IMG/VR virus record: IMGVR_UViG_3300028800_000074
Span: 15,132 to 79,131 of that record
Reading direction: 5' to 3' (one strand)
DNA: 64,000 nt
DNA from: a virus
Below, one piece after another: positions 7,411-25,444 of this stretch. The position numbers were made by a program, and so were the translations under genes. The number at the start of each line of letters is the position of its first letter. The first letter of the stretch is position 1. Below the pieces are notes generated by a model. The model ran no database searches and was not told the DNA's origin. It saw nothing but the letters and a program-made list of their open reading frames with translations.

Positions 7411-10400
7411 ATGGCAGCGCGTAAGCGGCCGACCTCATCCCCCCGGGTGAGGCCCGGCATCCATATCTCGGCGGCCCTCCAGTCCCGTATCCTGCGGGCC
7501 AAGGACGGTCCGAGCTACGACCCGTTCAAGCCCTACGTTCACGATCAGGCGCTGCACCCGCCCGGCGTAACGATGGCGATGGACGACGCCTACAACTCCT
7601 TCAGCCCGACGGCTGGGTGGTCGGTCCGCAGCCTCGGCAGCGCTATCGCCGAGGGGCAGGTCTTCCTCGGCTACCCGACCTTGGCCGCGTTGCTTCAACG
7701 CGTCGAGTACATGAACGCGGTCATGTCCTACGCCGACGACATGACGCGGAAGTGGATCGAGTTCAAGGCGAGCGCCGGGACCGACAAGCAAGAGCGCATC
7801 GACGCGATTACAGACAAGTGGGACGCGCTTCAGGTGCAGGCGCGGATGAAGGATCATATCGCGCAGGCTCTCGGCTTCGGACGGGCGCACGTCTATCTCG
7901 ACACGGGCGACACCGATAATCCGGACGAGCTGAAGAAGGACATTGGCGACGGCGCTCGGTCTGCCGCCACGGCGTTCAAACTCCCGGGCAAGAAGGTGCT
8001 CGGGCTCAGGACGATTGAGCCGGTCTGGGTCAGCCCGCACGACTACGAGACCTCGAACCCGCTCAAGCCGAACTGGTACAAGCCCAACGCTTGGCACGTC
8101 ATGGCGCGCGAGGTTCATGCGAGCCGTCTTCTGACGACCATCCCGTTCCCGGTCTCCGACTTGCTCAAGCCCGCCTACTCGTTCGGCGGCATCCCGCTCA
8201 TCCAGATGGGCAAGCCATACGTCGACAACTGGCTGAACGTCAGACAGTCGACGACCGACATCGCCGAGGCCTACTCGATCTTCGTGCTTGCGACGAAGTT
8301 GCAGGACACGATGGCTGGCGGCAACGGAGACCAAGAAGTCCTCAACCGCGTGGCGCTCTTCAATCGATACCGCTCTAACAAGGGCACGATGGTCATCGAC
8401 AAGGAGACCGAGGACTTCAAGAACATCTCGGCCAATGTGTCCGGCATCGAGGCGATCCAAGCCGCGTCGCAGGAGCATATGAGCGCCGCATGGCGCATCC
8501 CGCTGGTCAAGCTCACCGGCATCTCGCCGTCCGGGCTCAATGCATCGAGCGAGGGCGAGATCAGGGTCTATTACGACCTGATCCGGAGCATGCAGGAAGG
8601 CCTCATCCGCCCCCTGCTCCAGATCGTCCTCGACTTCACGAGCATCGAGCTGTTCGGCGACGTCGATCCGGATATCACGTTCGACTTCGTCAAGCTCTTC
8701 GAGGTCACCGAGGTTGAGGCGGCCCAGATCAGGTCGGCCGATGCGCAGACCGGCACGGCGCTCATCCAGTCCGGCGTGATCTCGACCGAGGAAGAGCGGG
8801 CCCGCGTCTCCAACGACCCGGACAGCCCGTACATCGACCTCAAGGACACGCCGATCCCAGTCATGCCGGGCCCAGCCCCGGGTGAAGAGGGCTACGTCGG
8901 CGATCCGGATAACTGGCAGACCGCCCTCGAAGGGATCAACAAGCTCGGCGGCCTCCTGCCAGCGCCGGAGCCCGAGCAGCGCGCCTCACCCGGCGCATGG
9001 GAAGGGGTGCTCAAGGGCGTTCTCGCCAACGGTGGGCTTGAGAACCCGGACAACGACGGCATCGTGGCCTCCCCCGAGGCATGGAAGGCCGTGGGGGCGG
9101 GTTTGTCCGCTTCCGGGGGTCTCAGCACCCCAGACGGCTCCGAGGCCGTCCAGCAGCCTCTTGAGCCCGCCATAAGGCAGGTGTTCGGCAAGGACGCGCT
9201 CGAAGACGAGCCGCGCAAGGGTGCCGGGCAGGCTGGCGGTGGCGAATGGACGGCTCAGAGCGGCGGCGGCGCTCAGAAGTCCGCGCCCGGGAAAAATGGC
9301 ATTATTGCCGGTAATAATCCGGCCAAGCGTCCCCACGTCGCGCACTATGATCCGAAGGCGACGCAGGTCGACGCACAGGGCGTGGTTCACACCACGTCGG
9401 TCGTCGACGCCGCCCGGGCGCTCTATGACGGCAAGAAGGTCGACCTCAATCAGCCGAGAGAGGTCGCAACACTCGTCGACCATCTGGGCCAAGTCGCGAA
9501 GCATATGATCGCGATGGGCGATGCTGCGCCGAACTTCAACCTGTGCAACGTCAGCGTCGACAACACGAACATCTTCTGTGCGGTGAGCGAGGGCATCCCT
9601 CGCATCGACATGCCGCAGCTCCCGCCGAACCTGCACCCGTTCTTGTCGTTCCTCGGCGAGAAGGGTCTCGGCTTCCAGCCCGCGATGGAAAAGGCTGGCT
9701 ACCTCAGGGCGACGCAGAACGAGCTGATCGGCGCTAAGGTCGCGGCTATCGCCAAGGCGTTGCAGAACATCGATCCGCGCAAGCTCGACCCGCTCGTGGT
9801 CAGCAAGGACAACTATATCGTCGACGGTCACCATCGCTGGTCGGCGGAAGTGGCGATCTCGGCTGAGCAAGGCAACTTCGACCGGCCGCTCGAAATCTAT
9901 CGCGTCAACAGCGACATCTTGCCGCTGCTCAAGCTCGCCAACGACTTCACGGGCGGCAAGGGACATGTCGCCGGATCGCTCAAGCCGGGCGAGGCTGCGC
10001 TGAACCTGAAGACCGAGAACCATTTCCTTGATGGGGAGACCCACGCGCACGACGGCCGCCCTTTTGGCCTTGACGAGGCTCGACCGAATCAGGCCATGGA
10101 TGACTTCAGCCCGTCAGAACCGCGCAAGGGCGTGGGACAGGCTGGTGCAGGGGAGTGGACGGCGGAGGGTGGGGCTGCGGCTCCTTTTGGCAAAGGCAAG
10201 CAATCCGAGCCTTCCGCCGCTTCTCTAAGCGACAAGATCGTCTCAACCCGGAACGTGACAGCCAAGTCCACCAAGGGCGAGGCCGAGGGCAAGTACCTCC
10301 GCATCGACACCGATGCGATGAAGGCTGACCCTGAGCTGTTCAAGCACAACGTCGGCCTCTTCAAGCGCGGCGACCTCTACCCCGGTATGAAGCCCGACGA

Positions 10401-11496
10401 ACTGAAGGGCTCCGAGCAAGAGGTCGCCAAGGCCGTCATCGAGCGCATGCGCGACAACCTCGACTTCCTCGTCGGGATGGTGCCGAAGGACAAGATCAAG
10501 GCGTGGGCGCACTGGTATGAGGGGGCGCACAAATTCGCAGAGGACTTCGGCAAGAAGTATGGCGTCGACACGGCGAGCGCGGCAGGCGTGATCGCGGCCC
10601 TCTCGCCGCAGAGGCCGTGGGACGAGAACGTCTACTTCGCGGATCGCGTGATGGACATCATGAAGAACCATCCCCACGACAAGTGGGACGACGCGATGAA
10701 GTCGACCGGCGAGAGGATTTGGACGAGCGCCAAGAACGCGCCGATCCTGAAGGCCATCGAAGGCAAGCGCCTCGACGAACTTGACGACCCAGTCGCTCAG
10801 GCGGCGTGGATCAGGACGTGGAACGAGGCGCACGAAGACCGCAAGTTCGAGATCGCGAAGCCGGACGGCACGTTCGGCGGCAAGATGAAGACGGCGGCCG
10901 GAGGCTATGACACCGCGTCATGGGGATCGCTTGCGCAGACCGTGAACGCGATCCACGCTTTCCAGAGCGGCGGCGACCCGAAGAAGCTCTCCGCAATCTT
11001 GGGTGAGAGACACAAGGTTCGCAGCTTCTACAACAACATCATCGCCCCTGATGATCCTAACGGCGACGTGACGGTCGATACGCATGCTGTTGGAGCGGCG
11101 TGGTTGCAGCCGACCTCGGGGACTTCCGCTTCGGTCTGGCACAACCTAGCTAACAATCCGGGCGCAGAGGGCAAGGACCCGTTCCGGCCGAAGAACTGGG
11201 TAGCAGCCAAGGGCTCGGCGAAGCTCGGCGTGAGAGGCACGTATCCGCTCTATGCCGACGCCTATCGAGAGGCGGCGAAGGATTTGGGGCTCAAGCCCCG
11301 CGAGGTTCAGTCGGTCGCGTGGGAGATGAAGCAGCGCCTGTTCAGCGACAAGCTGACCGGCGAGAGGGTTCAGAAGGCCGTCAACGAGGTCTGGGAAGAC
11401 TACCGTGACGGCAAGCTCTCGCTGAAGGATGCGCGAGAGAAGGTAGTCTCGGTCGCGACGGCTATGCGCCCCGACCACAAGATCGACTTCAACTGA
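7411..11496 (+). CDS. Portal protein (DUF1073 type) with two fused C-terminal cargo domains (ParB-like; HhH-glycosylase-like)
   Basis: DMTRKWI, VHASRL, RIPLVKLTGISPSGLNASSEGE...YYD portal motifs in aa 1-490; IVDGHHRW; WY...AGVIAALSPQ...KVRSFYNN...VTVDTH. Confidence 0.9.
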   Translation: MAARKRPTSSPRVRPGIHISAALQSRILRAKDGPSYDPFKPYVHDQALHPPGVTMAMDDAYNSFSPTAGWSVRSLGSAIAEGQVFLGYPTLAALLQRVEYMNAVMSYADDMTRKWIEFKASAGTDKQERIDAITDKWDALQVQARMKDHIAQALGFGRAHVYLDTGDTDNPDELKKDIGDGARSAATAFKLPGKKVLGLRTIEPVWVSPHDYETSNPLKPNWYKPNAWHVMAREVHASRLLTTIPFPVSDLLKPAYSFGGIPLIQMGKPYVDNWLNVRQSTTDIAEAYSIFVLATKLQDTMAGGNGDQEVLNRVALFNRYRSNKGTMVIDKETEDFKNISANVSGIEAIQAASQEHMSAAWRIPLVKLTGISPSGLNASSEGEIRVYYDLIRSMQEGLIRPLLQIVLDFTSIELFGDVDPDITFDFVKLFEVTEVEAAQIRSADAQTGTALIQSGVISTEEERARVSNDPDSPYIDLKDTPIPVMPGPAPGEEGYVGDPDNWQTALEGINKLGGLLPAPEPEQRASPGAWEGVLKGVLANGGLENPDNDGIVASPEAWKAVGAGLSASGGLSTPDGSEAVQQPLEPAIRQVFGKDALEDEPRKGAGQAGGGEWTAQSGGGAQKSAPGKNGIIAGNNPAKRPHVAHYDPKATQVDAQGVVHTTSVVDAARALYDGKKVDLNQPREVATLVDHLGQVAKHMIAMGDAAPNFNLCNVSVDNTNIFCAVSEGIPRIDMPQLPPNLHPFLSFLGEKGLGFQPAMEKAGYLRATQNELIGAKVAAIAKALQNIDPRKLDPLVVSKDNYIVDGHHRWSAEVAISAEQGNFDRPLEIYRVNSDILPLLKLANDFTGGKGHVAGSLKPGEAALNLKTENHFLDGETHAHDGRPFGLDEARPNQAMDDFSPSEPRKGVGQAGAGEWTAEGGAAAPFGKGKQSEPSAASLSDKIVSTRNVTAKSTKGEAEGKYLRIDTDAMKADPELFKHNVGLFKRGDLYPGMKPDELKGSEQEVAKAVIERMRDNLDFLVGMVPKDKIKAWAHWYEGAHKFAEDFGKKYGVDTASAAGVIAALSPQRPWDENVYFADRVMDIMKNHPHDKWDDAMKSTGERIWTSAKNAPILKAIEGKRLDELDDPVAQAAWIRTWNEAHEDRKFEIAKPDGTFGGKMKTAAGGYDTASWGSLAQTVNAIHAFQSGGDPKKLSAILGERHKVRSFYNNIIAPDDPNGDVTVDTHAVGAAWLQPTSGTSASVWHNLANNPGAEGKDPFRPKNWVAAKGSAKLGVRGTYPLYADAYREAAKDLGLKPREVQSVAWEMKQRLFSDKLTGERVQKAVNEVWEDYRDGKLSLKDAREKVVSVATAMRPDHKIDFN
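8902..9126 (+). repeat. Three 28-aa (84-bp period) repeats PxxWxxxxxGxxxxGGL in the portal linker
   Basis: Trp codons at 8914, 8998 and 9082, exactly 84 nt apart. Confidence 0.8.
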
Positions 11497-11518
11497 ACCT
11501 CGGGAGTTTTCGTGCGAC

Positions 11519-11965
11519 ATGACCACAGAGGATGCGAAGGCGGGTCTTAATCTGGTGATGGCCTACGCCGGTAGGTGGGCGCTGGGCGTCATTGCCTCGG
11601 CGCTTGTCTCAATAGGGCTTTACGCCGTCCACCAGAACAACGACATCACGGGCCTCCTGTCGTCGCACACGCAAAACTTCGTGAGCATGCAGCGCGAGAT
11701 CGACGAGATTAAGGGCGACATCGCCAACCACAACAAGCAGATCGACGATACGCAGAGGCAGATCAAGTCGGACCTGAGCGAGGCGCAGAAAGAGTCGCAG
11801 ACGCAACTGGAGCGTCGGCAGGACGAGATCATGAGCGCGGTGCATGACGTAACGCGCGCCGTAATCGCCGCGCACTCCGACCTGATGTCTCTTCGGGCTG
11901 GTCTTTTGAACGCGAAGCCGGGTATTGTCATCCCGTTCGAAGATTCGAGCCGGGCCGAGAAATGA
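11519..11965 (+). CDS. Membrane-anchored coiled-coil protein
   Basis: One N-terminal TM (WALGVIASALVSIGLYAV) followed by heptad-rich helix. Confidence 0.75.
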   Translation: MTTEDAKAGLNLVMAYAGRWALGVIASALVSIGLYAVHQNNDITGLLSSHTQNFVSMQREIDEIKGDIANHNKQIDDTQRQIKSDLSEAQKESQTQLERRQDEIMSAVHDVTRAVIAAHSDLMSLRAGLLNAKPGIVIPFEDSSRAEK

Positions 11966-12309
11966 GATCGCAACTGATCATCGTGTTCACGGTCGCCTCT
12001 CTGGGCCAATCGGCCTCAGCGCACGCTGGCGACTGGACCGCGCAGGTCGTCGAGCGAACGCAAGGCGGGCCAGCGGCGGTCTGTAACGGTGAGCAGAGGA
12101 TCGTCGTCACGAAGAAGCGTGACGGCACCTTCGTCATCGACGGGCCGACCTGCCTTGTTCCAAGAGCGCCTGCAAATAGCTGGGCTCCTCCGCCTCCGAG
12201 GCCGCCGAGCAAGACGGTCCCTCGAAGGGTCTACCACGAGCGCTATGAGCGGCCTCACCACAAGGGTCGCGCAGGGCTGTTCGACTTCCTGTTCGGTAAG
12301 CACCAATGA
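11962..12309 (+). CDS. Exported small protein (signal peptide, 2 Cys, Pro-rich tail)
   Basis: MRSQLIIVFTVASLGQSASAHA|G. Confidence 0.7.
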   Translation: MRSQLIIVFTVASLGQSASAHAGDWTAQVVERTQGGPAAVCNGEQRIVVTKKRDGTFVIDGPTCLVPRAPANSWAPPPPRPPSKTVPRRVYHERYERPHHKGRAGLFDFLFGKHQ

Positions 12310-13976
12310 ACACGCCCGGCTCCATCGCCGTCCTCAAGTTCATGACGGAGAACGACATCCCGCTCACCCGGGAGAACTTCGTCAACACGAACTGGGGCGG
12401 CAACCCGCCTCGCCCGTGGGACGCCGAGGCCGAAGAAGAGATACCACTGGAGCTGGCCGAGTTCGGCGAGCCGGAAGAGAACCGCGAGCTTCTGGAAGAC
12501 CGTGGCGACCTCGCTGGCGACGACTGGGCCGTGATGGCATCCGGCAAGATCGTCGAAGTCCCCGCTGGCACCAAGGCTGGCGACACAGCCCCGGACATCT
12601 GGGCCAAGGACGCCTTCGACCCGCAGGAGCCGCGCAAGGACGACGGCGAGTGGACGTCGGGAGGCGGGGGCGGCGGAGCGAAGGCTGAGAAGGAGCCGGT
12701 CGTCGACGTGCCCGCATATGAGTGGGCGAAGCGTCAGATCGACAAGCACACGAAGAACAGCAAGCTGCGCGCCAAGCAGCACGAGTGGATGGCGCGGCAC
12801 AAGCAGAACGTCGACGCCTTCTTCAAGAAGAGCGACATCAAGGTCGCGCTCGACAAGGTCGCCAAGGATGCGACATCGACCACGTCGTTCACCGTCGGCG
12901 CGGCGCTCAATAAGGGCGCGGACGTCGTCTCTGATGCGCTTCAGGACGCCTTGATCGCGGTGGCGGTCGGAGCTGGCGTCGCAGCCTTCGGCGTCGGAGG
13001 TTGGCAGGTCGCAGGATCGGCGGCGCTCGCTTACGCGGTCGAAGAGCTTGGCGACTGGCTCGGGCTCACGCCGGAGAACGCGGTCAAGCTCATCAAGGCC
13101 GGAGTGCAGGAGATCGGGAAGGCGCTGAAGAAGCGCCCCCAGAAGGACGAGAACGACGACGGGATGTTCAGCCTTCTGTCGGCTCTCCCGTGGGATCACC
13201 CGGTCGACCCGAAGACGAACCCGTTCATCGAAGGCGAAGAGTTCGTGTCTCCGAACGTCAAGACTGGTCTCGATCTTCAGGACGCGATCAAGGAGACGAC
13301 GTCGCCGCGCCACAAGACGATGATCAAGGCGGCGCGCGACATCAACAAGCTCATCGGCTTCGAGAGCGAAGAACACTCAGCGATTGGCGCTTGGCTCGAC
13401 GGCGCAGAGAACAGCGTGATGTCTGTCACGCACGGCGCGACCATGGCTCAGCTCAGGACGGCGGCGGCGATGGAGGGGGCGCTTGCAAACCAGCGCTCGG
13501 TGATGATCGTCAACGAGAACGTCGGCGGCAAGGGGCTGCTCTATCACTTCGACGTCAAGGGCGACGTTCAGTCGATCCACGACGGCTTGCTGGCGAGCGG
13601 CGTCGAGTTCCACACCATCGTTCCTTCCGCCGACGGCAAGTTCACGGTATATGTCGCCTCGGCTGATTCGTCACAACGAGAGTTCAAGGCGGTTCAGAAG
13701 GCGGCGGAGCGCTTCAATGCCAAAGTCGAGTACCACAGGGTCGACGCCGAACTCGTCGGATCGGACAAAGAAGACGGCACCGACGCCGAGCAGCGAGAAG
13801 ACGCCCAGTCCCGTTACGGATCAATCATTGAAGGCGGCGGGGTTCAAGGAGCCAAAGCCATCTGGGGCCGGGTTTATTCTCGGTACAAGGCCGCCTTCGA
13901 AGACAGAGCCGTAAAGAAGCCTCGTGAAGAGAGGCCGCCGTGGCGGACGCAACAGGCTGAGGGGGCGAGAGCGTGA
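12306..13976 (+). CDS. Putative internal head/cargo protein carrying the EPR-GEW tag
   Basis: WAKD|AFDPQEPRKDDGEWTSGGGGG at about aa 100; central hydrophobic hairpin; located between portal and MuF. Confidence 0.75.
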   Translation: MNTPGSIAVLKFMTENDIPLTRENFVNTNWGGNPPRPWDAEAEEEIPLELAEFGEPEENRELLEDRGDLAGDDWAVMASGKIVEVPAGTKAGDTAPDIWAKDAFDPQEPRKDDGEWTSGGGGGGAKAEKEPVVDVPAYEWAKRQIDKHTKNSKLRAKQHEWMARHKQNVDAFFKKSDIKVALDKVAKDATSTTSFTVGAALNKGADVVSDALQDALIAVAVGAGVAAFGVGGWQVAGSAALAYAVEELGDWLGLTPENAVKLIKAGVQEIGKALKKRPQKDENDDGMFSLLSALPWDHPVDPKTNPFIEGEEFVSPNVKTGLDLQDAIKETTSPRHKTMIKAARDINKLIGFESEEHSAIGAWLDGAENSVMSVTHGATMAQLRTAAAMEGALANQRSVMIVNENVGGKGLLYHFDVKGDVQSIHDGLLASGVEFHTIVPSADGKFTVYVASADSSQREFKAVQKAAERFNAKVEYHRVDAELVGSDKEDGTDAEQREDAQSRYGSIIEGGGVQGAKAIWGRVYSRYKAAFEDRAVKKPREERPPWRTQQAEGARA

Positions 13977-14182
13977 CGCTCGAAGAAGAGCTTTTCAAAA
14001 GAGCGCAGCTTGAGGCTGAGGCGGATCGCATCCTCAGCATCGGCATCGCGCATAATCGAAAGGTGCAGCGAAACGCCAAGCGCCTTAAGCACTGGACTGG
14101 GGGCCGCCTCACCACGGCCGAGATCAATCAGATGACGGCTGAGATGAGGGCGAGGGCTGGTGACGGCAAGGTTCTCGGGTAA
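13973..14182 (+). CDS. Hypothetical protein
   Basis: GTGA overlap. Confidence 0.55.
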   Translation: MTLEEELFKRAQLEAEADRILSIGIAHNRKVQRNAKRLKHWTGGRLTTAEINQMTAEMRARAGDGKVLG

Positions 14183-15083
14183 GTGGTGCGGGCAGCCTTA
14201 CGGCAAGCCCAGCGTGCTGCTCACCCTTCCAAACCTCATGGGTCTCGACGCCAAGGCGTCAGGGAAGCCCGCTGGCGGCCGTCGGCCGTCCGTCGCGGTA
14301 GGCAGGCCCCTGCATCCGAACCTCGGTCTGGCGGCCTCCTATGGGGCGCGGCTGACCTCTCTGATCGACGAGATGCACCGGAGCGTTATCTATTGGCTCA
14401 AGGCCGAGTATCGAGCTAACCCACCAGCGACCATGGCGTTCGACGATCTCGCATCGAAGACACTGGCCGAGACGATGAAGGGTTTGGCGAAGCGGTGGCT
14501 AGGACGCTTCGATGAAATGGCGGAGAGGCTGGCCCGTTATTTCGCCCAGTCCGTATCCAAGCGGACCGACGACGCGCTCAGGAAGATTTTGAGCGACGGC
14601 GGCATGGCGCTCAGGGACTGGAAGACGACCGCCGCCCAGAAGGATGCGCTCGCGGCCATCGTCCACGAGAACGTGTCGCTGATCAAATCGATCCCGCGCG
14701 AGTATCTCGGCAAGGTCGAGCGCGACGTGATGCGGTCGGTCGCGGCCGGTCGAGACCTGAAGCAGCTCGAAGACGATCTTCAGGCACACTTCGGGGTGAC
14801 CCGAGACAGGGCTAGGCTGATCGCGGTCGACCAGAACAACAAGGCGACGGCGATGCTGCGCCGCGTCCGCGCCGTCGAGGCGGGCACGTTCACATGGGAG
14901 TGGATGCACTCCAGCGCAGGCAAGACGCCGCGCCCGACGCATCTCGCGGCCGGACGTCGTGGCCAGCGGTTCGACATCCGAGAGGGATGGTTCGATCCGC
15001 ATGAGGGCCGCAAGGTTCAGCCGGGCGAATTGATCCGGTGCCGATGTACTTGCCGACCGGTTTTCCCCGGCCTACCGTCCTGA
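14160..15083 (+). CDS. Head morphogenesis protein (MuF / SPP1 gp7 family)
   Basis: ENVSLIKSI, RARLIAVDQNNKA, PRPTH, PGELIRCRC. Confidence 0.92.
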   Translation: MTARFSGKWCGQPYGKPSVLLTLPNLMGLDAKASGKPAGGRRPSVAVGRPLHPNLGLAASYGARLTSLIDEMHRSVIYWLKAEYRANPPATMAFDDLASKTLAETMKGLAKRWLGRFDEMAERLARYFAQSVSKRTDDALRKILSDGGMALRDWKTTAAQKDALAAIVHENVSLIKSIPREYLGKVERDVMRSVAAGRDLKQLEDDLQAHFGVTRDRARLIAVDQNNKATAMLRRVRAVEAGTFTWEWMHSSAGKTPRPTHLAAGRRGQRFDIREGWFDPHEGRKVQPGELIRCRCTCRPVFPGLPS

Positions 15084-15128: not shown

Positions 15129-15515
15129 ATGCCGCGTGGAAAAGCGAAGATGCCGATGAGGCTGAGACATCCGCCGACCCAGAACTATCACCGGGATGAG
15201 CCAGCGCCGCCGACGCACCGGCCTCCACCCAGCGCCGGGGCCGAAGGCAAGAGCACTGGACTTCACTCGGTCCAGTACGACTTCGATATTCGCGTAAGCG
15301 AACTGGTTCGCTTCAACGAGCGTCTTGAGCGCCTTCGCAACGAGTTGCTGGGGGTGGCGGACATGAGCGGCGAAGGACAGGAGCAGAAGCCCGAGCCGAT
15401 GGGCATCCTCCCAAGGTCGCAAGCGTCGTGTGCTGCAATCGGGGGTCAGATCGTTCACGCGAACGACGTCCTTGATGACATTATGACCGCGTGCGGCGTC
15501 GTGGAGAATTATTGA
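15129..15515 (+). CDS. Hypothetical protein
   Basis: GGAAGGAGAGAG RBS before ATG 15129. Confidence 0.65.
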   Translation: MPRGKAKMPMRLRHPPTQNYHRDEPAPPTHRPPPSAGAEGKSTGLHSVQYDFDIRVSELVRFNERLERLRNELLGVADMSGEGQEQKPEPMGILPRSQASCAAIGGQIVHANDVLDDIMTACGVVENY

Positions 15516-16940: not shown

Positions 16941-17043
16941 CGGGCTCTCTCTTTCGCTCAATGGCCAAAGATAATCGGACTACGTCCGAGCCGGATAGTT
17001 GTCACCCCTCGGAAACTACTCAAACGTCGCCACGGAGCTTGTG

Positions 17044-17394
17044 ATGTCTCTCAGCCCGCTCGTCGCGCTCTTGGTGTTGCTGGCCGCGTCTTCAGCTCAC
17101 GCCGAGAGCTACTGCGGGAAGCCTGAGAACGATGCGGTTCTCAAGCTCATCCCAGACGCCAAGATCGAGACGCTCACGAAGAGCCAGTTCTACTACGCGC
17201 TCGGCATCTGGAACGGACAACCTCCGATTGGGCGTGGACCGGACGACGTGGACGGCGCTGAGATCGTGACAAGCCCGGACGGCAAGAGAGCAGCGGTCTT
17301 GTTCACGCTGGGGCCGCTGTTGTGTGGAGGGATTGCTCCGGCTCCGCCTCAGGTCATCGAGATGATCCGAAAGATTGATGGAGGGGAGCTGTGA
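17044..17394 (+). CDS. Exported small protein (signal peptide, 2 Cys)
   Basis: MSLSPLVALLVLLAASSAHA|ESYC. Confidence 0.75.
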   Translation: MSLSPLVALLVLLAASSAHAESYCGKPENDAVLKLIPDAKIETLTKSQFYYALGIWNGQPPIGRGPDDVDGAEIVTSPDGKRAAVLFTLGPLLCGGIAPAPPQVIEMIRKIDGGEL

Positions 17395-17768
17395 TCCGCT
17401 GGGCCGTCGCGTTCTTGCTTCTTGCGTCGCCTGCCGTTGCGCATACGAACTGCGACGGGTCGAGCGCGAGCAAGGTCCAAGGGTGCTGCGGTCCGGAAGA
17501 CTCGCTCCATGTGAGTCCCGGCGACGTGAGCCGCGACGGCGACGTCTGGTACGTCAAGATCGATGGCGCGATGCACGCGCTGATCAACGGAGCTGGCAAC
17601 CCCATCCAGCTCATGCCGCAGGACGATCAGGGCCACGGCTCCTGCTACACGGTCTGGTACCGGCGCGAGGTCACGAAGGGCAGCAGCTCTTTCGATCCCA
17701 ACAATACGCACGGCGGAAGCGGTGATGTGTACCACTTCTACTGCTTCCAAGGACCATACACCTTTTAA
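17391..17768 (+). CDS. Exported Cys-rich small protein
   Basis: MIRWAVAFLLLASPAVA|H; GCCG...CY...YCF. Confidence 0.75.
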   Translation: MIRWAVAFLLLASPAVAHTNCDGSSASKVQGCCGPEDSLHVSPGDVSRDGDVWYVKIDGAMHALINGAGNPIQLMPQDDQGHGSCYTVWYRREVTKGSSSFDPNNTHGGSGDVYHFYCFQGPYTF

Positions 17769-17806
17769 GACCTTCTGAAGGAGAGAGCAGAAGTGGACAC
17801 ACGACA

Positions 17807-18271: not shown

Positions 18272-18474
18272 GCCTAGCTGACCGCTATATCGGCGAGGAC
18301 GGAGGTCCGCCTACCGGCAAGCCGAAGAAGCGGTTGCCGAAGTCCGATATTGACAACCTGATCAACAAGGTCTTTCGAGGCTTCAACATCGGGGCGTCCA
18401 TCTCGGATCGATTCGAGGCGCACGACGCGATGGCGAAGCTAGCCAAGGTCTTGAGAAACGAACATGTCGCCTGA
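18268..18474 (+). CDS. Hypothetical protein
   Basis: GTGA overlap start. Confidence 0.6.
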   Translation: MSLADRYIGEDGGPPTGKPKKRLPKSDIDNLINKVFRGFNIGASISDRFEAHDAMAKLAKVLRNEHVA

Positions 18475-18751
18475 GCACACACCGGCTCGACCCTCGAAGT
18501 GCTGCCCCGCTCTATCCCGTCGCCTCATGGGCGCGGTCGGGTTTCATGCCTACCCCATGATGAACGCCTACGCCGGATGGTTCGAGCCGATCTCTGGGCG
18601 GATCAACGTCGAGTGGCTCTCGCCGGAAGAGGTTAAGGTCCGGCACGATAAGCTCGTAGCAGAGGGTCAGAAGCGGACCTTCCAGATGGTCAACGGCATC
18701 GTCGTGGAGGCCAACGTCGACGATCTCAATGCAATCTCGGAGCGCGTGTGA
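18464..18751 (+). CDS. Hypothetical protein
   Basis: Overlap-coupled. Confidence 0.55.
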   Translation: MSPEHTPARPSKCCPALSRRLMGAVGFHAYPMMNAYAGWFEPISGRINVEWLSPEEVKVRHDKLVAEGQKRTFQMVNGIVVEANVDDLNAISERV

Positions 18752-18969
18752 TGGCTGACCCCGTGGTGACCCTCGTGCAGGGCGACAAGGTCTCCGACAA
18801 AGAGCGCGCCGAGTGGCACAAGCAGAACATCGCCAAGGCGGCAGAGACGCTCTTCGCCGCCATGGACCTCGCGGTCAGCGAGGACTTCGTCATCAACTTC
18901 CAGCCCACCATAAACATAGCGATCAAAAAGCACATGATCGCGGTGCTGGGCGTCGGGAGGATGTGGTGA
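18748..18969 (+). CDS. Hypothetical protein
   Basis: Overlap-coupled. Confidence 0.6.
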   Translation: MMADPVVTLVQGDKVSDKERAEWHKQNIAKAAETLFAAMDLAVSEDFVINFQPTINIAIKKHMIAVLGVGRMW

Positions 18970-19265
18970 CGGCGATTGGCGGATGGGACATCGTCCACGA
19001 GTGCGATGACGGCTATCACGTCGTCTGGCTCCTGAGCAACGACAAGGGCGAAGAGCTGGCGCACGCCGAGGGCTTCCGGCGCGGGGAGAACGGCGGGTAC
19101 GTCTGGTACCCCTACGCGATGGACCCGAGCGACCCCGAGCATCTGATCCGTCTCGGTCCGTCGGCGCACAGCGACATCGAACTCGTGAAGAAACAGTGCG
19201 AGGCAGTCATCGAGGGGTCCAAGAGCCCTTACGCGGACAGCGTCGCCTACGTGATCGGAGGTTGA
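18966..19265 (+). CDS. Hypothetical protein
   Basis: GTGA overlap, GGGAGG RBS. Confidence 0.6.
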   Translation: MTAIGGWDIVHECDDGYHVVWLLSNDKGEELAHAEGFRRGENGGYVWYPYAMDPSDPEHLIRLGPSAHSDIELVKKQCEAVIEGSKSPYADSVAYVIGG

Positions 19266-19268
19266 GGC

Positions 19269-19976
19269 GTGGGCAGCAACGGCAAACTCGGCATGGACGC
19301 TTGGAAGAAGGCGTTCGCGAAGGACTGCTGGATGAAGGGCGCGAAGGACGACAACGAGTCCATGGCGGCCGAGCAGGACGACAGCGGCGGCATGACCGGC
19401 GACGTCCCCGGCTTCGAGACCTCGCATGTGCCAACCTTCAGCCCCGAGGACTTCGAGCGCTTGGGCGCACGGAAGGCCAAGGGCAACGACGACGCCTATC
19501 GCGGATGGACGCCCGGTGGCGGTGCGCCACAGCCGATCACGACCAGATCAACTCCGGCAGCGCCTAAGCGCCCGGAGTACCGTGGGTGGACCCCGGGTGG
19601 TGGCGCACCGATGTCGAAGGACGGCATCGTGAGCGGCATCAAGAGCGCGGCGAAGTCGGCGTTCGCGGCAGCGAGGAAGCCTTACCCGTCGTCAACTCCG
19701 GGCGACCCGTTTCACCTTCCGAGCGCGACGCCGAAGAACGGCTTCTCGATGCGGAACGGTCGCGGCGCTCATGACTCGCCGACCGACAAGACGCCCGATC
19801 AACCGTCCGGCTTCGACAAGGGCGGCATGGTGCGCGGCATGGATTACCTGAAGAAGGGCCAGAGGCGTCTCGGCAAGGCTGGCGCGATGGACGTCATCCT
19901 GAAGACGAAGCGCCCCAGTAGTGGCGTCAGCACTTCGCTCCGGCACGAAGTAGAGGACTTGCAGGACTCGGTGTGA
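19269..19976 (+). CDS. Low-complexity protein with many [AGS]-x-D sites (putative internal head peptide precursor)
   Basis: GMD, AKD, AKD, GND, SKD, AHD, GFD, GMD, AMD; duplicated YRGWTPGGGAP; GGAGG RBS. Confidence 0.7.
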   Translation: MGSNGKLGMDAWKKAFAKDCWMKGAKDDNESMAAEQDDSGGMTGDVPGFETSHVPTFSPEDFERLGARKAKGNDDAYRGWTPGGGAPQPITTRSTPAAPKRPEYRGWTPGGGAPMSKDGIVSGIKSAAKSAFAAARKPYPSSTPGDPFHLPSATPKNGFSMRNGRGAHDSPTDKTPDQPSGFDKGGMVRGMDYLKKGQRRLGKAGAMDVILKTKRPSSGVSTSLRHEVEDLQDSV

Positions 19977-19998
19977 GTCCTGAAGCGAGGAGAGAGAG

Positions 19999-20238
19999 AT
20001 GCTGAATCACATCGAAGTCAACGACCGCCTTACCCGCCTTGAGCGCTTCGTCGCCGAGATCGGCTCGCACATCTCGTCGGACAGTATTTCGCCAGAGCTG
20101 GAGCAGTTCGTCGCGGCCGATCAGGCGAGGATCGACAAGGAGCGTGAAGAGCAGTCGGCGAATGAGCCCGGCGAGGCCCACGACGGCGGCCCGATGCCGC
20201 CCGAGGGCGACGGCACCGACCCTGACGCGCCTCGTTGA
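19999..20238 (+). CDS. Acidic small protein with SSD/AAD/AHD sites
   Basis: GAGGAGAGAGAG RBS. Confidence 0.7.
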   Translation: MLNHIEVNDRLTRLERFVAEIGSHISSDSISPELEQFVAADQARIDKEREEQSANEPGEAHDGGPMPPEGDGTDPDAPR

Positions 20239-20390
20239 CGATCAGGCACGTCTGCGCCTTCTGTTCGACGAATAACGCGATGCAGATGGGCTCGACCGCG
20301 ACCAAGAACGGGCGGACCGGCGTCGTGAAGTGGTGGAACTTGCTCCACTGCATCAAGTGCCGCCGCTCGTATCGGATCGGTCGAACATGA
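20235..20390 (+). CDS. Small Zn-ribbon protein, 51 aa (not in ORF track)
   Basis: TTG start overlapping upstream stop; CAFC...CIKC; ATGA overlap downstream. Confidence 0.65.
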   Translation: MTIRHVCAFCSTNNAMQMGSTATKNGRTGVVKWWNLLHCIKCRRSYRIGRT

Positions 20391-20551
20391 ACTGGGCGCT
20401 CGCTCACTTGCGCCATAAGATGCGCGTCAAGGGCTATGGCCTCGTTCGAGACCGGCGCAGATGGCGGAACGAGCGCAATCACTGGCGCGTGCGGCGACAG
20501 ATGATGTCGCTCTTCGAGGCGGCGGGATTTTTCGAGGCCGAGAGCCAATGA
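20387..20551 (+). CDS. Small Arg-rich protein
   Basis: ATGA overlaps at both ends. Confidence 0.55.
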   Translation: MNWALAHLRHKMRVKGYGLVRDRRRWRNERNHWRVRRQMMSLFEAAGFFEAESQ

Positions 20552-20790
20552 GCTTCAATGTTCAAGGATGGTCGAAGTGCTTCTCGCATGATTGCTGGAA
20601 GCCGAAGACTGCCGCGAAGGACGATTGGGGCGACTATCATCGGGTCGGTGGGATGAACTTCCCGACCGCGAAGACGGCCGAGCGCATCGATCACGCTGGT
20701 CTCAATAAGGAGACGCGCACTCCCGGGAACATGCGCGAAGACGAAGGTCTCGGCCAGTCCATCAGGGACGACCGGGACATGAGCTGGTAA
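20548..20790 (+). CDS. Small protein sharing the N-terminal motif of the 19269 gene
   Basis: WSKCFSHDCWKPKTAAKDD versus WKKAFAKDCWMKGAKDD. Confidence 0.65.
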   Translation: MSFNVQGWSKCFSHDCWKPKTAAKDDWGDYHRVGGMNFPTAKTAERIDHAGLNKETRTPGNMREDEGLGQSIRDDRDMSW

Positions 20791-20809
20791 CCGCAGCTCT
20801 CCCTTTCAG

Positions 20810-23266
20810 ATGCGTCGACCTGTCGGGTTCGCCCGAGCGCTTGCGCTCGACGACTTCAATGCGGCTGAGCCTCGCGCCAACAATGGCCAGTGGGCAGCGG
20901 CTCCGGGCGGGGGCTTCACGCTCAGGCCAGACGCGGCCAGTGCCGCTACCCGTTACAGAAGGGCAACGGAGCGAGCGCAGTCTGCTCTGCCTGACGACGA
21001 CGAATATCAGCGTCTTCTGGAGCAGGGGCGGAAGCTCGAAGGCCTGAAGGCCGCCGTCCGCGATCCCCTGACCGGGAAGATCATGACCGGGCGTGATCAC
21101 AACGCGGCGTTCTACTCGCACGATAAGGATGCGCAGGCGCGCATCAAGGCGACACTGACGCCCGGACGAGACCCGGTGACGAACGTCGCGACCAATAGGT
21201 GGAACTACGAAGGGCCAAACGTCGGCTTTACTCGTGGTGGATCATTTTTCTCGCGTCAGCAGGTCGAGGACATGCTTAAGGCGCGCGATGATCAGGATTT
21301 ATCCGAAGCGCTTCACGGTGCCTCCTACGAGGATGTGCGCTCGAAGCGCAGTTCAATCGCCAGCACCATCGCCCGCTTCCATAATCGTGAGGGCGGAGAA
21401 CCCATGTTCGGTGGAGATCGAAGGAAAGTGTTCGCGCACGACGCAATCGATGCAGAGATGGCGTTCGATGAAGCCCAGACCACGCGATCTTATGATCCGT
21501 TCGGTCGGCTCAACCTCGACCTGACGCCGATCTCGAAGGCGACCGTCAATCCATATCAGGGGAAGGAAATCCCCGACTGGCAGAAGCTCAAGCTTGACCC
21601 CGAAAAGGTCTACATGCTGCTTCGCCATCCCGACGAACTGAAGCGCGCAGCCGCGAGCTTCAACAATGTGCCGCTGCTCTATCGTCACAAGCCGACGAGC
21701 GCCGAGAACCATCCACGCGATCTCGTTGTGGGGACGACCGGCGAGCGCGCAGTTTATCAGCACCCCTACCTCTACAACTCGATGTCCGTCTGGGACGACA
21801 ACGACGGCATCGAGGGCATCGAGAACAACAAGGCTCGCGCTCTCTCGTGTGGCTACGCCTATGACCCGGACATGAGGCCGGGCGTCTACGAGGGGCAGCG
21901 TTACGACGGCGTGATGCGCAACATCAGGGGCAATCACGTCATCCTCACAAAGGAAGGCCGCGCCGGGCCGGACATCATCGTTGGCGACTCAATGGAGAAC
22001 CTCAACATGGCAACTGCACCGAAGCTTTCTCCGGTGGCATTGGTCGCTCGAAGGGCGGTCAGGCAGCACCTTACGCCGCTCATGGCGGCCGACGCGGCGA
22101 TTGACATCACGCCCGCCTTCGTCGGCCTCAAGCAGCTCGACGAGCGATCCCAGCAGATCGTTCACGCGCGGGTCGGCCAGCTCGTGCGCGGCAAGCTCAA
22201 CGCGGCGCTGGCGATGGACGATGTGAGCGCCGGGCTCCGTGCGCTGCTCGAAGCGCTTGGCGGAGGCGGCGAGCCCGACATGGGCGGCGGCGTCGACGAC
22301 GTCTCCCCTCCCGGGACCGAGGCCGAGGGCATGCCCGAGACCGACCTCGCGACCGGCGCAGAGCCGGACACGATGCAGCTCGAAACCGACGCCGCTCCCC
22401 CGGAGGATACCTCTGGCGGCAACGACCCGCCTCCGATGCAGGGCGCTGGCGGCGATCCGGCTGCGATGGAGCAGGCGGGTCCGGCACCGCAGGGCGGCGA
22501 AGGCGCGGCAGGACCGATTGAGAAGGTCCGCAGCTACCTCATGACCGTCCTGAACCCCGCCGAGATGCAGCATCTCGAACTCCTCATCTCCGAAGTCGAC
22601 AGCGGCGACGGAGGGGAGCCGGACCCGACCATGCAGGCGGGAGGCTCAGAGAAGCCCGGTGGCGGCCATCCGCCGATGGCCGGTGCTGGTGGACCTCCCG
22701 GCCCCGACAAGGGCGCTGGCGGGCCTCCTATGGCCGCTGGCGGCCCTCCCAAGCCTCCCGGCGCTGGCGGACCTCCGCCGAAGCCCGGCGCGGGTGGGCC
22801 TCCCGATCCCAAGAAGCAAACCGGGGATAACCCCCCTCGAACCGCAGGAACGCCGCAGGTCGGCGGAAAGGACAGAAACATGGCAGGTGATCAGGCCTTC
22901 GTCAGCCGGGCCGACCTTCAGGCTGCGCTCGCGGCGAACGACAAGCTCCATCGTGAGCGTGCGGAAGCCCGGGCTTTCATCCGACCGTTTGTCGGGGAAC
23001 TCACCGGGCTCGCGATGGACGCGGCTCCGAACGACGTCATCAAGGCCGCGCTCAAGATCAAGGGCATGTCCGACGCCGACCTGAAGCCAATTCAGGACAC
23101 GGCCGCGCTCAAGCTCCTGCTCGGCGCTCAGTCGAAGGCCGAAGCGTCGCGTGAGAGAGCGCCCCGCATGGCGCTCGATTCGAAGGCGACGTCGAAGGAC
23201 GAGCCCTTCAGCATCGAGGCCGTCACCGGTCTCAAGAACTTCGGAAGGATCGGACGCGCGGCCTAA
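20810..23266 (+). CDS. Prohead protease (DUF2213 type)/scaffold with N-terminal tagged cargo domain
   Basis: TPISKATVNPYxGxEIP, LSCGYxY, YDGVMRNIRGNHV, GRAG; Gly/Pro-rich scaffold; N-terminal LALD|DFNAAEPRANNGQW. Confidence 0.88.
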   Translation: MRRPVGFARALALDDFNAAEPRANNGQWAAAPGGGFTLRPDAASAATRYRRATERAQSALPDDDEYQRLLEQGRKLEGLKAAVRDPLTGKIMTGRDHNAAFYSHDKDAQARIKATLTPGRDPVTNVATNRWNYEGPNVGFTRGGSFFSRQQVEDMLKARDDQDLSEALHGASYEDVRSKRSSIASTIARFHNREGGEPMFGGDRRKVFAHDAIDAEMAFDEAQTTRSYDPFGRLNLDLTPISKATVNPYQGKEIPDWQKLKLDPEKVYMLLRHPDELKRAAASFNNVPLLYRHKPTSAENHPRDLVVGTTGERAVYQHPYLYNSMSVWDDNDGIEGIENNKARALSCGYAYDPDMRPGVYEGQRYDGVMRNIRGNHVILTKEGRAGPDIIVGDSMENLNMATAPKLSPVALVARRAVRQHLTPLMAADAAIDITPAFVGLKQLDERSQQIVHARVGQLVRGKLNAALAMDDVSAGLRALLEALGGGGEPDMGGGVDDVSPPGTEAEGMPETDLATGAEPDTMQLETDAAPPEDTSGGNDPPPMQGAGGDPAAMEQAGPAPQGGEGAAGPIEKVRSYLMTVLNPAEMQHLELLISEVDSGDGGEPDPTMQAGGSEKPGGGHPPMAGAGGPPGPDKGAGGPPMAAGGPPKPPGAGGPPPKPGAGGPPDPKKQTGDNPPRTAGTPQVGGKDRNMAGDQAFVSRADLQAALAANDKLHRERAEARAFIRPFVGELTGLAMDAAPNDVIKAALKIKGMSDADLKPIQDTAALKLLLGAQSKAEASRERAPRMALDSKATSKDEPFSIEAVTGLKNFGRIGRAA

Positions 23267-23315
23267 GCGCGTCCATTTCGTCCGCCCCTCAAACTCAGCA
23301 TAGAGGAGAGACCCG

Positions 23316-24284
23316 ATGTCGGGCTTCCAGACCCAAGTCAATATCCAGCCCGCACTGGGTGTCGCGGGCGACTTTTGCAGCGCCAACACCCACAACACCT
23401 TCCAGTCCGGCGCAGGCGGCCTCGTCGCGGGCCCGGCTGGCGTGACCGTCGCCGCGTTCGCGTGGGTGACCTATCAGACGACGGATGACGCCTACGCTCC
23501 GGGCACGGTCAACAGCTTCGGCTTTGGACCACCGAGCGGCTTCATCCATCGCGAGATGCAGTCGCTGAACACCGTCTATCCGCCTTACGTCACCCCGGCT
23601 GGCGACAACACGATCCCGTCTGGCTTCCAGATCGGCTCGCTGTTCCGCTCCGGCGACTTCTTCATGACGAACAACGGGACCACGCAGGCGCAGCCGGGCC
23701 AGACGGCCTATGCGTTCCTCGCGACCGGCCTCGTCCGCTTCGGCTCGGCGAACACCACGACGTCGTCGACGACCTCGACCGTCTCGGCGCAGACCTTCAG
23801 CGTCACCGCGACGCTGAACAACAACATCATGACCGTCTCGAACGTCAGCTCGGGCTCGATCTACGCGGGCGCGACCATCTCGGGTTCGGGCGTGATCGGG
23901 TGCCAGATCGTCGGTCAGGTGACCCCGCTACTCGCGGGCGAGACCCTCGCTGGCGTCGGCCGCTACTACGTCAGCGCGGCCGAGCAGAACGTCGCCGTCG
24001 GCGTCACCGTCTCGGGCACCTACGGGTTGCTCACGCTCGGCGGCGCTCCAGCCACGCCGATCCCGATTGGCGCGTTCGTGAGCGGCGGCACCGTCGGCAA
24101 CCCCTGCTATGTCCGGCAGCTCATCTCGGGCACGGGCGGCGCGGGCTCGACCTACTCGGTCGACAACAACACCGTCTCTTCGTCGGCCACGCTCACCTTC
24201 ACGCTCGACGTGGCGACGAGCTGGGTTGCGGACTCGGCGGGAGCGCCCGGCGAAGTCGTCAAGACCCGCTGCCTGATCCCGTAA
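23316..24284 (+). CDS. Head decoration/cement protein with inserted beta modules
   Basis: MSGFQTQVNIQPALGVAGDF, GFIHRE, GDFF; directly before the capsid gene. Confidence 0.85.
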   Translation: MSGFQTQVNIQPALGVAGDFCSANTHNTFQSGAGGLVAGPAGVTVAAFAWVTYQTTDDAYAPGTVNSFGFGPPSGFIHREMQSLNTVYPPYVTPAGDNTIPSGFQIGSLFRSGDFFMTNNGTTQAQPGQTAYAFLATGLVRFGSANTTTSSTTSTVSAQTFSVTATLNNNIMTVSNVSSGSIYAGATISGSGVIGCQIVGQVTPLLAGETLAGVGRYYVSAAEQNVAVGVTVSGTYGLLTLGGAPATPIPIGAFVSGGTVGNPCYVRQLISGTGGAGSTYSVDNNTVSSSATLTFTLDVATSWVADSAGAPGEVVKTRCLIP

Positions 24285-24340
24285 GGCGGCTGACACAACC
24301 ATAAAGCCCAAGCGGCTAACCTCTGTAGGAGAACCCTCAC

Positions 24341-25444
24341 ATGACCGTTCACATGAACCCGCAAGAGGCACGCGCCGCTTGGGCTCTGCATGCGCCCGAG
24401 TTCGCTCGCCTCGGTTTTATCGCGCCGGAAATCCAGTCCTACTACCCCTCTGGGATGAAGGAAGACTGGACGCTGGCGTTCGACGCGCAGCCTTCGCTCC
24501 AGTCCGACCCGAACTCGGCGCTGCCGGTGATGCTCACGACGATGATCGACCCAGAAGTCGTTCGCTTCGTCTTCGCGCCGACCGAGTTCGCCGACATCTG
24601 CGGCGAAGTCCGGAAGGGTACGTGGCTCGACGAGACGATCCTCTTCCCGGTCGTTGAACACACCGGCGAGGTCGCGCCCTACGGCGACGACTTCAACAGC
24701 GGCGCGTCCGGGGTCAACATGAACTGGCCCCCGAGGCAGAGCTACCTGTTCCAGATCATCAAGCAGTACGGACAGCGTGCGCTTGAGCGGGCGGGGCTCG
24801 GCAAGATCGACTACGTGAGCGAGATCGACAAGGCTGCGGCCGACGTCGTGAACCGCTTCCACAACCTCGCCTACGCGTTCGGCATCCTAGGCCTCATCAA
24901 CTACGGCATGTTGAACGACCCGGCGCTCCCGGCGTCGCTCACCCCGGGCGTCAAGGCGAACGGAAACGGCAACGTCTGGATTTTCAACAATCTGCCGAAC
25001 GCCAGCGCCAACGAGGTCTACAACGACATCCTCGCCCTCTACCAGTCGCTCATCTCGCGCACCTACGGCCTCGTCAACAAGAAGTCGAAGCTGACGCTCG
25101 TGATGTCGCCGGGTTCCGAGATGGCGATGGACTTCGCCAACGGCTTCAACGTCCACACGAGCGACATCCTCGCGAAGGCGTTCCCGAACCTCACGATCAA
25201 GACCGCGCCGCAGTACGGCGTGCTCTCTGCGGCCAACCCGCAGGGGATCACCGGGGGCAACTTCGTGCAGCTCTTCGCCGAGGAGTTCGAGGGGACCAAG
25301 ACCGTGATGGCCGCCTTCAACGAGAAGCAGCGCGCCTTCCCCATCATCAAGGAGATGTCGTCCTTCAAGCAGAAGGTCGCCTCCGGCGTGTGGGGCACCG
25401 TGATCCGACGGCCGCTCGCCGTCGCATCCATGATCGGGGTGTAA
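24341..25444 (+). CDS. Major capsid protein (DUF2184 type)
   Basis: LAFD|AQP, KGTW, VEHTGEVAPYGD, RQSYLFQ, YGMLNDP, GVWGTVIRRP. Confidence 0.93.
   Translation: MTVHMNPQEARAAWALHAPEFARLGFIAPEIQSYYPSGMKEDWTLAFDAQPSLQSDPNSALPVMLTTMIDPEVVRFVFAPTEFADICGEVRKGTWLDETILFPVVEHTGEVAPYGDDFNSGASGVNMNWPPRQSYLFQIIKQYGQRALERAGLGKIDYVSEIDKAAADVVNRFHNLAYAFGILGLINYGMLNDPALPASLTPGVKANGNGNVWIFNNLPNASANEVYNDILALYQSLISRTYGLVNKKSKLTLVMSPGSEMAMDFANGFNVHTSDILAKAFPNLTIKTAPQYGVLSAANPQGITGGNFVQLFAEEFEGTKTVMAAFNEKQRAFPIIKEMSSFKQKVASGVWGTVIRRPLAVASMIGV

Follow-up and report, generated by a model that had tools for sequence, protein, structure and literature searches.

Do the short tetrapeptides ending in aspartate that recur at domain borders in the head proteins of a phage mark the places where its prohead protease cuts? 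The question is raised by a 64,000-nucleotide stretch of DNA (the window; positions 15,132 to 79,131 of IMG/VR record IMGVR_UViG_3300028800_000074), drawn from a phage contig of 79,131 bp with a G+C content of 63%. The phage is a myophage related to PB1 and Bcep781, and the window carries its head module. A preliminary description held that Ala, Gly or Ser two residues before Asp denotes a cut site, that all twenty-odd such sites in the portal, MuF, protease-scaffold and capsid proteins are cut, and that the tripeptide can be used to find head proteins. All of the tetrapeptides that it named are present at the residues listed in Table 1, within a span that runs from the first base of portal MAMD (7573) to the last base of capsid LAFD (24484). 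The best explanation for them, with a probability of about three in four, is an Asp-specific prohead protease that cuts after hydrophobic-Ala-x-Asp. The cut-site reading is solid for the capsid and probable for about ten further sites, while about half of the listed sites remain conjecture. The motif very probably serves as a cut mark in relatives as well, including the PB1-like Pseudomonas phages.

Frequency of the motif in head proteins and homologues

Enrichment was measured against 2000 within-protein shuffles of all 99 open reading frames (ORFs) of the 79-kb genome. The bare tripeptide [AGS]-x-D, for which an excess in head over tail and early proteins had been proposed, occurs 94 times in head proteins versus 89.9 expected (z = 0.5), 82 times in tail proteins (98.7 expected) and 123 times in the others (133.7 expected). 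Tested singly, A-x-D, G-x-D and S-x-D are each at chance in head proteins. When a hydrophobic residue is required before the alanine, [LIMVFYW]-A-x-D is found 25 times in head proteins versus 10.6 expected (z = 4.5), with 9 occurrences in tail proteins (12.2 expected) and 18 in the others (17.7 expected). A further requirement of Ala, Ser, Asp or Glu at P1' gives 14 in head proteins versus 3.2 expected (z = 6.0), 1 in tail proteins (3.7 expected) and 5 elsewhere (5.2 expected). The remark that the motif often follows a hydrophobic residue is thus borne out for Ala at P3 and fails for Gly or Ser, as hydrophobic-G-x-D and hydrophobic-S-x-D have no head enrichment in the shuffle test. Control motifs in which P1 is Glu or Asn, or the order is reversed or permuted, are flat in this genome, and hydrophobic-A-x-E lies at or below chance both in head proteins and in relatives. 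The size of the head excess means that about 11-14 head-module matches stand above background and that the rest are noise.

Because a chance match arises about every 470 residues, the bare motif is of little use for predicting which proteins are internal to the head. With a site matrix trained on relatives, the separation of head from other proteins is only modest (Mann-Whitney p = 0.006), and use of the motif alone as a gene-finding tool is advised against.

The pattern is stronger among relatives of the protease gene. Sequences of 119 homologues were thinned for redundancy, and the DUF2213 domain and its boundary tetrapeptide were removed. Hydrophobic-A-x-D then occurs 105 times versus 30.8 expected in the N-terminal extensions (z = 14) and 437 times versus 113 expected in the scaffold regions (z = 33), both z-scores being inflated by the common ancestry of the homologues. 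In the same regions G-x-D, S-x-D and the permutations are all flat, and versions with P1 changed to Glu or Asn are depleted. The N-terminal extensions are heterogeneous and include NUDIX, GNAT, Zeta toxin and topoisomerase I domains. The logo of sites in relatives reads Lys/Arg at P5, Leu/Met/Ile at P4, Ala at P3, Met/Gln/Phe at P2, Asp at P1, Ala/Ser/Glu at P1' and Ala at P2'. A scan of viral contigs for relatives yielded a single 5-kb locus, which is too short for a comparison of head with tail.

Candidate cleavage sites and the protease

The capsid provides the experimental anchor. From the major structural protein of KPP12, a PB1-like phage, Edman sequencing read 20 residues beginning SNFTAPV (PMC3474789), and the capsid precursor of PB1 reads GSAMD64 followed by S65NFTAPV. 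Together, these sequences place the cut directly after the Asp of A-M-D, and the statement in the preliminary description that mature PB1-like capsids start there is confirmed. LAFD48-A of the window aligns with SAMD64-S65 of PB1, offset by a one-residue indel. The predicted mature capsid protein would therefore begin at A49-QPSLQ, after loss of a 48-residue propeptide. Capsid models of phages E217 and Pa193 start at residue 66, and both cryo-electron microscopy (cryo-EM) papers leave cleavage of capsid and portal open.

The capsid site is kept in 120 homologues as L-A-M-D followed by A-Q-P, with Ala in 118 and Asp in all 120. A deeper set of 119 representatives, at 30-47% identity, has [AGS]-x-D directly before the N-arm in 93. 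P3 is Ala in 85 of these, Gly in 7 and Ser in 1, so that the "small residue" of the rule as proposed reduces largely to alanine, in keeping with the lack of enrichment of G-x-D and S-x-D. A hydrophobic residue stands at P4 in 77, with Met at P2 in 45 and Ala at P1' in 74. Another 23 have the Asp with no Ala, Gly or Ser at P3, followed mostly by Ala or Ser, and 2 lack the Asp; an Asp lies just upstream of the N-arm in 116 of 118. The family assignment of the capsid rests on phrog_264 (E = 6.4e-44), the E217 and Pa193 capsid chains (E ~1e-12) and PF09950 (DUF2184), which is recorded on homologues. A tblastn search with the capsid matched 543 phage records (PB1-, Bcep781-, AP22-, OP2- and Aeromonas phage 56-like), with alignments that begin at residue ~42-57. 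A full-text search for the predicted mature N-termini of Bcep781, AP22, OP2, Bakoly, BCSR52 and WFC found no paper. A second capsid tetrapeptide, MAMD 261-264, was rejected as a cut site, as it lies beyond the N-arm, inside the mature capsid protein.

In the portal, the N-terminal site is conserved as x-A-x-D in 118 of 120 long homologues (MAMD in 53, LAMD in 24), and the portals of PB1, OP2, Asa56 and BCSR52 have [VMI]AMD there. Residues 1-93 of the Pa193 portal have neither cryo-EM density nor peptides in mass spectrometry after liquid chromatography (LC-MS), and its VAMD 73-76 falls within this unseen stretch. The internal portal sites HAHD881 and FGLD888 have no comparative support among relatives. 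In MuF, MAFD95 aligns with A-x-D in six of eight cultured relatives (AKD, AQD, AMD, AED, AQD and AQD). The extension that carries MGLD30 is absent from seven of the eight, and MGLD30 aligns with no [AG]-x-D.

Conservation in the scaffold region, judged from 11 homologues at 33-56% identity, is graded, as listed in Table 1; near MAGD 691-694, homologues other than the closest have A-M-D a few residues off. The protease-gene profile aligns over almost the full length of Pa193 gp24, C-terminal region included (E = 2e-17), so that chain G of PDB 9b40, deposited as "scaffolding protein", is by sequence a DUF2213 protease-scaffold homologue. In the alignment with gp24, MAAD428 pairs with A-A-D then S, LAMD737 with R-A-M-D then S, and MALD790 with K-A-Q-D then S, and gp24 also has A-Q-D then A lined up with a scaffold site. 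Residues ~600-680 of the scaffold (22600-22850) form a long run rich in Gly, Pro and Ala with repeated GGPP and AGGP units.

The protease-scaffold gene encodes a product in three parts: an add-on at the N-terminus, a prohead serine protease of the DUF2213 family and a C-terminal scaffold. The protease domain matches PF09979 with E = 4.7e-42, covering 167 of 167 profile positions, and phrog_2229 (head maturation protease) with E = 1.8e-95. An AlphaFold model of residues 212-407 has a predicted local distance difference test score of 84.5. Its best structural match by VIA-align is T4 gp21 (5jbl_C; Z 9.7, root-mean-square deviation 3.1 Å over 134 residues), and herpesvirus proteases fill most of the next ranks (Z 5-7.5). 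At E <= 0.001 Foldseek by itself returned nothing (best E ~0.02), so the fold call rests on VIA-align. As modelled, the DUF2213 domain has the fold of T4 gp21 and herpesvirus assemblin. His293, Ser346 and His376, invariant in a 34-sequence alignment and ordered as in assemblins, form a candidate catalytic triad.

Both edges of the domain carry conserved strings. At the N-edge, A-x-D stands directly before D-R-x-S-V-R, with Asp220 invariant and Ala218 in at least 90% of the same 34 sequences, and, among the 119 homologues listed, nearly all have a hydrophobic residue at P4. In fused relatives a second copy of the motif frequently lies 10-30 residues upstream. MAFD 217-220 sits at the transition from disorder to order in the model. 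FGGD203 has no comparative support among relatives. After the domain, G-R-A-G-x-D...[VI]-[GQ]-D-S (residues 385-394, 21962-21991, with D388 and D393) is invariant, in a low-confidence segment of the model. Its conservation equals that of the candidate catalytic residues, and it may be an auto-processing or docking element; cleavage at VGD 391-393 is possible.

Several sites stand next to what may be a cargo tag. The genome has exactly four tags of the form [HEQ]-P-R...G-x-[FW], every one of them in a head protein and 4-5 residues after [AG]-x-D. Here the tag is EPR(K/A)...G-[EQ]-W with a run rich in Gly behind it, a local variant of the (D/E)HPR...G-[KQ]-F...GGG found at portal-cargo junctions of relatives. 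Among 131 tags in 119 portal homologues, A-x-D lies within 16 residues upstream in 74% and only G-x-D in 18%, so that [AG]-x-D is coupled to 92%, compared with 9.7% for random positions; the Asp is 6-8 residues before the tag. Gly at P3 thus appears to be tolerated in the tag-linked context, the one respect in which "small" holds. As the tag is located after the presumed cut, it would stay on the cargo. For LALD14 of the protease gene, which has no comparative support, the link to the tag is the sole support. The portal and protease fusions of relatives carry NUDIX, GNAT, Zeta-toxin, topoisomerase I, ADP-ribosyltransferase, ddrB-ParB, Hint/intein and DUF7178 modules. One portal relative is labelled "anti-CBASS Acb1 family" in its source.

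Two smaller genes share a leader. ORFs 19269-19976 and 20461-20790 have in common W-x-K-x-F-x-x-D-C-W, ending in F-[AS]-[KH]-D, and LGMD10 of the former ranks third in the genome among matches to the site matrix trained on relatives. The 235-residue product of ORF 19269-19976 is a candidate free-standing internal head protein. It is apparently disordered, with YRGWTPGGGAP duplicated.

Table 1. Head-module genes and candidate sites, with positions in the window
Feature	Nucleotides	Strand	Remarks
Large terminase	2919-4454	+
ORF of 713 residues	5258-7399	+	between terminase and portal
Portal fusion, 1361 residues	7411-11496	+	Phage_portal_3 residues 90-447; ParB-like stretch near residue 800; DUF7178
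Portal MAMD 55-58	7573-7584	+	predicted loss of N-terminal 58 residues; homologue conservation
Portal FGKD 592-595	9184-9195	+	predicted cut at portal/cargo junction; Gly at P3; 4 residues before cargo tag
Cargo tag 1, EPRK...GGEWT, portal 600-614	9208-9252	+
Portal cluster HAHD 878-881, FGLD 885-888, QAMD 894-897	10042-10101	+	QAMD897 5 residues before tag 2
Cargo tag 2, EPRK...AGEWT, portal 903-917	10117-10161	+	before DUF7178 module
Spanin-like pair of small ORFs	11519-12309	+	between portal gene and 556-residue ORF
556-residue ORF, WAKD 99-102, then tag EPRKDDGEWT 108-117 (12627-12656)	12600-12656	+	absent from the preliminary description; same site-plus-tag layout
MuF	14160-15083	+
MuF MGLD 27-30	14238-14249	+	unsupported
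MuF MAFD 92-95	14433-14444	+	A-x-D in relatives
Small-ORF stretch, ~5.7 kb		+	between MuF and protease gene
235-residue ORF leader, LGMD 7-10, FAKD 16-19	19287-19325	+	site matrix; shared leader
FSHD 41-44 of ORF 20461-20790	20581-20592	+
Protease-scaffold gene, 818 residues	20810-23266	+	DUF2213 residues 226-394
Protease gene LALD 11-14, then tag EPRANNGQWA 20-29 (20867-20896)	20840-20896	+
FGGD 200-203, FAHD 208-211, MAFD 217-220	21407-21469	+	protease-domain N-edge; alignment
DUF2213 prohead protease domain, residues 226-394	21485-21991	+	Pfam, PHROG, AlphaFold model
VGD 391-393	21980-21988	+	linker after protease domain; invariant string
Scaffold MAAD 425-428	22082-22093	+	P-x-[LMI]-A-x-D-A in 11/11 homologues, 33-56% identity
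Scaffold LAMD 467-470	22208-22219	+	A-x-D in 11/11 homologues
Scaffold MAGD 691-694	22880-22891	+	kept in closest homologue only
Scaffold LAMD 734-737	23009-23020	+	D-[ST] junction in 9/11 homologues, Ala at P3 in 6 of these
Scaffold MALD 787-790	23168-23179	+	near C-terminus; hydrophobic-A-x-D-A in 10/11 homologues
XM1 gp53-like decoration protein		+	between protease-scaffold and capsid genes
Capsid protein, 367 residues	24341-25444	+
Capsid LAFD 45-48	24473-24484	+	predicted maturation cut after D48; homologue conservation; PB1/KPP12 site

Proposed maturation and its alternatives

In the proposed mechanism, the DUF2213 protease would act inside the assembled prohead and cut after Asp, in a motif with Lys/Arg at P5, Leu/Met/Ile/Phe at P4, Ala (rarely Gly) at P3, Met/Gln/Phe/Leu at P2, Asp at P1 and Ala/Ser/Asp/Glu at P1'. 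From the capsid it would remove the 48-residue propeptide, exposing A49, and from the portal ~58 N-terminal residues. The portal would also be parted from its ParB-like and DUF7178 add-ons, and the protease domain would be freed from its N-terminal add-on. The scaffold would be chopped at residues 428, 470, 737, 790 and perhaps 694. That the protease of this phage is the cutter, that sites other than the capsid are cut, and the order of these events are inferred. The claim that an Asp-specific protease cuts at every listed site is supported in its first half: the fold, the KPP12 Edman result and conservation favor Asp specificity. It is "every" that is not borne out, with only about 11-14 of the head-module matches in excess of background.

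Several observations weigh against this mechanism. Cleavage is observed in the family at the capsid site only, and not in this phage; the KPP12 authors gave their Edman result no interpretation, and it covers one site (PMC3474789). Some relatives lack Ala at P3 of the capsid site, such as WFC with R-V-G-D then A, and the conserved VGD-S also departs from the Ala rule. Unfused proteins whose leaders have 5-12 residues also carry the motif at the protease N-edge, where it could be a structural or docking element rather than a cut site. Among the statistics, shared ancestry means that the independence of the 119 homologues is overstated, and the portal-fusion cargo regions reach just z = 3.2. In seven cultured distant relatives, the enrichment in portal, MuF, protease and capsid together is modest (42 versus 25.9 expected, z = 3.2), other proteins have 41 versus 32.5 expected (z = 1.5), and A-x-D alone is raised equally in head and other proteins.

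The alternative that survives best, though it is unlikely, is that only the capsid propeptide is cut and that the remaining motifs serve docking or binding, for example as scaffold-coat contacts or as a pseudo-substrate that holds the protease inactive. Such a role would suit the retention of the N-edge motif behind very short leaders, and experimental termini exist for the capsid site alone. In Pa193, moreover, residues 286-326 of gp24 remain in the mature capsid, and the authors are undecided on its cleavage. Yet the same preferences from P4 to P1' recur in settings unrelated to one another: at the capsid, at the portal N-terminus, in the scaffold and at junctions before non-homologous cargo. 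The sites also fall in low-confidence linkers of the model, and the portal N-terminus of Pa193 that holds VAMD is absent by LC-MS. In the related systems of T4 and SPN3US, in addition, scaffolds and propeptides are as a rule cut at multiple sites (PMC10052503).

It is highly improbable that the broad rule holds in full, with every Ala, Gly or Ser two residues before Asp a cut site, all twenty-odd sites cut and the tripeptide able to find head proteins. Gly does occupy P3 at some tag-linked sites (FGKD595 and 18% of the tags of relatives), and four proteins of the head module contain F-[AGS]-[KH]-D. Against this, the tripeptide is at chance in head proteins, its Gly and Ser forms are flat in the window and in relatives, Ser is nearly absent from P3 of the deep capsid set, and several listed sites lack conservation. 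The decoration protein of KPP12, from the same gel as the capsid, starts at its own Met (PMC3474789), and its PB1 counterpart contains YAGD, so that the presence of a motif does not suffice by itself.

It is scarcely credible that the pattern is a compositional by-product of a 63% GC genome, with its common Ala, Gly and Asp and its scaffold helices rich in Ala, Leu and Met, picked post hoc. This does hold for the broad motif, the data had been seen before the four-residue motif was defined, and A-x-D is raised in non-head proteins of cultured relatives too. But permutations that leave the composition unchanged are flat or depleted, which largely refutes it, and forms with Glu or Asn at P1 are likewise depleted. 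The motif keeps fixed alignment columns across 30-50% identity, and the experimental terminus of KPP12 agrees.

Related systems, neighboring genes and wider meaning

The proposed Asp-specific protease is best seen beside its closest known counterparts. The PB1-like phages KPP12, PB1, E217 and Pa193 have the same gene order of portal, MuF, protease-scaffold, decoration protein and capsid, homologous capsids (DUF2184) and proteases (DUF2213), a propeptide that ends in A-M-D, and a portal with VAMD near its N-terminus. They differ from the phage of the window in a capsid identity of ~23%, a propeptide of 64 rather than 48 residues, and far fewer add-on modules on portals and proteases. The structural papers on E217 and Pa193 call gp24 scaffolding, never mention a protease and do not state a cutting rule. 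No stated cleavage rule for DUF2213 proteases was found in the searchable literature, which leaves older papers on Bcep781- and PB1-like phages outside its reach.

The system is best read as an Asp-specific variant of the Glu-specific maturation code of T4 and phiKZ. In T4, gp21 cuts at [L/I]-x-Glu sites, and internal proteins carry capsid-targeting leaders. Besides being the best structural match, gp21 shares with the DUF2213 system a short motif with an acidic end, the cutting, here predicted, of capsid, portal-vertex, scaffold and internal proteins in the prohead, and, on internal cargo that is putative here, short peptides that adjoin the cut site. In contrast, the window has Asp rather than Glu at P1 and Ala at P3, and the two proteases have no detectable sequence similarity. 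Its protease is also fused to the scaffold, much of its cargo is joined to the portal or protease rather than made as separate proteins, and its tag follows the presumed cut. Judged from sequence, the system would work like that of T4 without the [L/I]-x-E rule. The phiKZ protease gp175 follows an A-x-Glu rule. SPN3US gp245 likewise cuts at A-x-Glu; it prefers Val or Ala at P4, has Ser at P1', makes several cuts in long propeptides and cleaves itself (PMC10052503). These giant-phage proteases are a close parallel in logic, with Ala at P3, but they have Glu at P1, belong to a different protease family by sequence and serve jumbo phages with T=27 heads. Herpesvirus assemblin shares the fold (Z 5-7.5), the His-Ser-His order and the fusion of protease to scaffold, and differs in having no acidic P1 and in its eukaryotic hosts. 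It cuts between Ala and Ser in (V/L)-x-A-S.

Fused cargo has its own precedent. Iyer, Burroughs, Anand, de Souza and Aravind reportedly described phage polyvalent proteins with portal- and MuF-fused effectors in 2017. The portal and protease homologues found here fit that framework, with their NUDIX, ADP-ribosyltransferase, Zeta-toxin, topoisomerase I, ParB-like and DUF7178 modules. It is said to cover domain architectures, and not an Asp-specific cut site or its coupling to a [HE]PR...G-x-[FW] tag.

The nearest relatives of the phage are found in alphaproteobacterial genomes and metagenomes, and its closest capsid homologues have 52-83% identity. No match was obtained when the head module was compared by Megablast with 50,697 phage records, so that relatives among them are detectable at the protein level only. 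The protease-scaffold gene is placed after portal and MuF and before the decoration and capsid genes, and its C-terminal scaffold region is present. The DUF7178 match of the portal is best at residues 1026-1086, and the PHROG matches of the same module extend to residue 1211. The 713-residue ORF at 5258-7399 has no match in Pfam or PHROG; it has a signal-peptide-like N-terminus and a C-terminal tail rich in Ala, Thr and Gln, and is an unusual gene for that spot. Within 11519-12309, one ORF has a weak Rz-like match (phrog_739, E = 6e-5) and the second opens with a signal-peptide-like sequence, which would put a spanin-like pair inside the head module. At 16999-17768, inside the 5.7-kb insert, adjacent ORFs of 131 and 125 residues have hydrophobic, signal-like N-termini and several Cys.

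The T4- and phiKZ-type proteases have well-studied Glu-specific rules, and the motif described here offers a rule for the large DUF2213 group, which includes the PB1-like phages of therapy cocktails as well as hundreds of uncultured phages from soil and water. An Asp-specific motif predicts exact mature termini, accounts for missing N-terminal density and predicts the piece of gp24 that stays in the capsid. It also gives a handle on the enzyme cargo fused to portal and protease in many relatives, and is itself testable in cultured phages. More tentatively, and at odds a little short of even, a single Asp rule (hydrophobic-Ala-x-Asp, then Ala or Ser) together with the [H/E]-P-R...G-x-[F/W]...GGG tag may form a general load-and-release system of the whole DUF2213 group. 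If so, the fused enzymes (ParB-like, DUF7178, NUDIX, ADP-ribosyltransferase, Zeta-toxin and topoisomerase) would be loaded into the capsid, released by cleavage and delivered along with the DNA. It would then be possible to predict packaged effectors from sequence and to swap them by design in cultured PB1-like phages.

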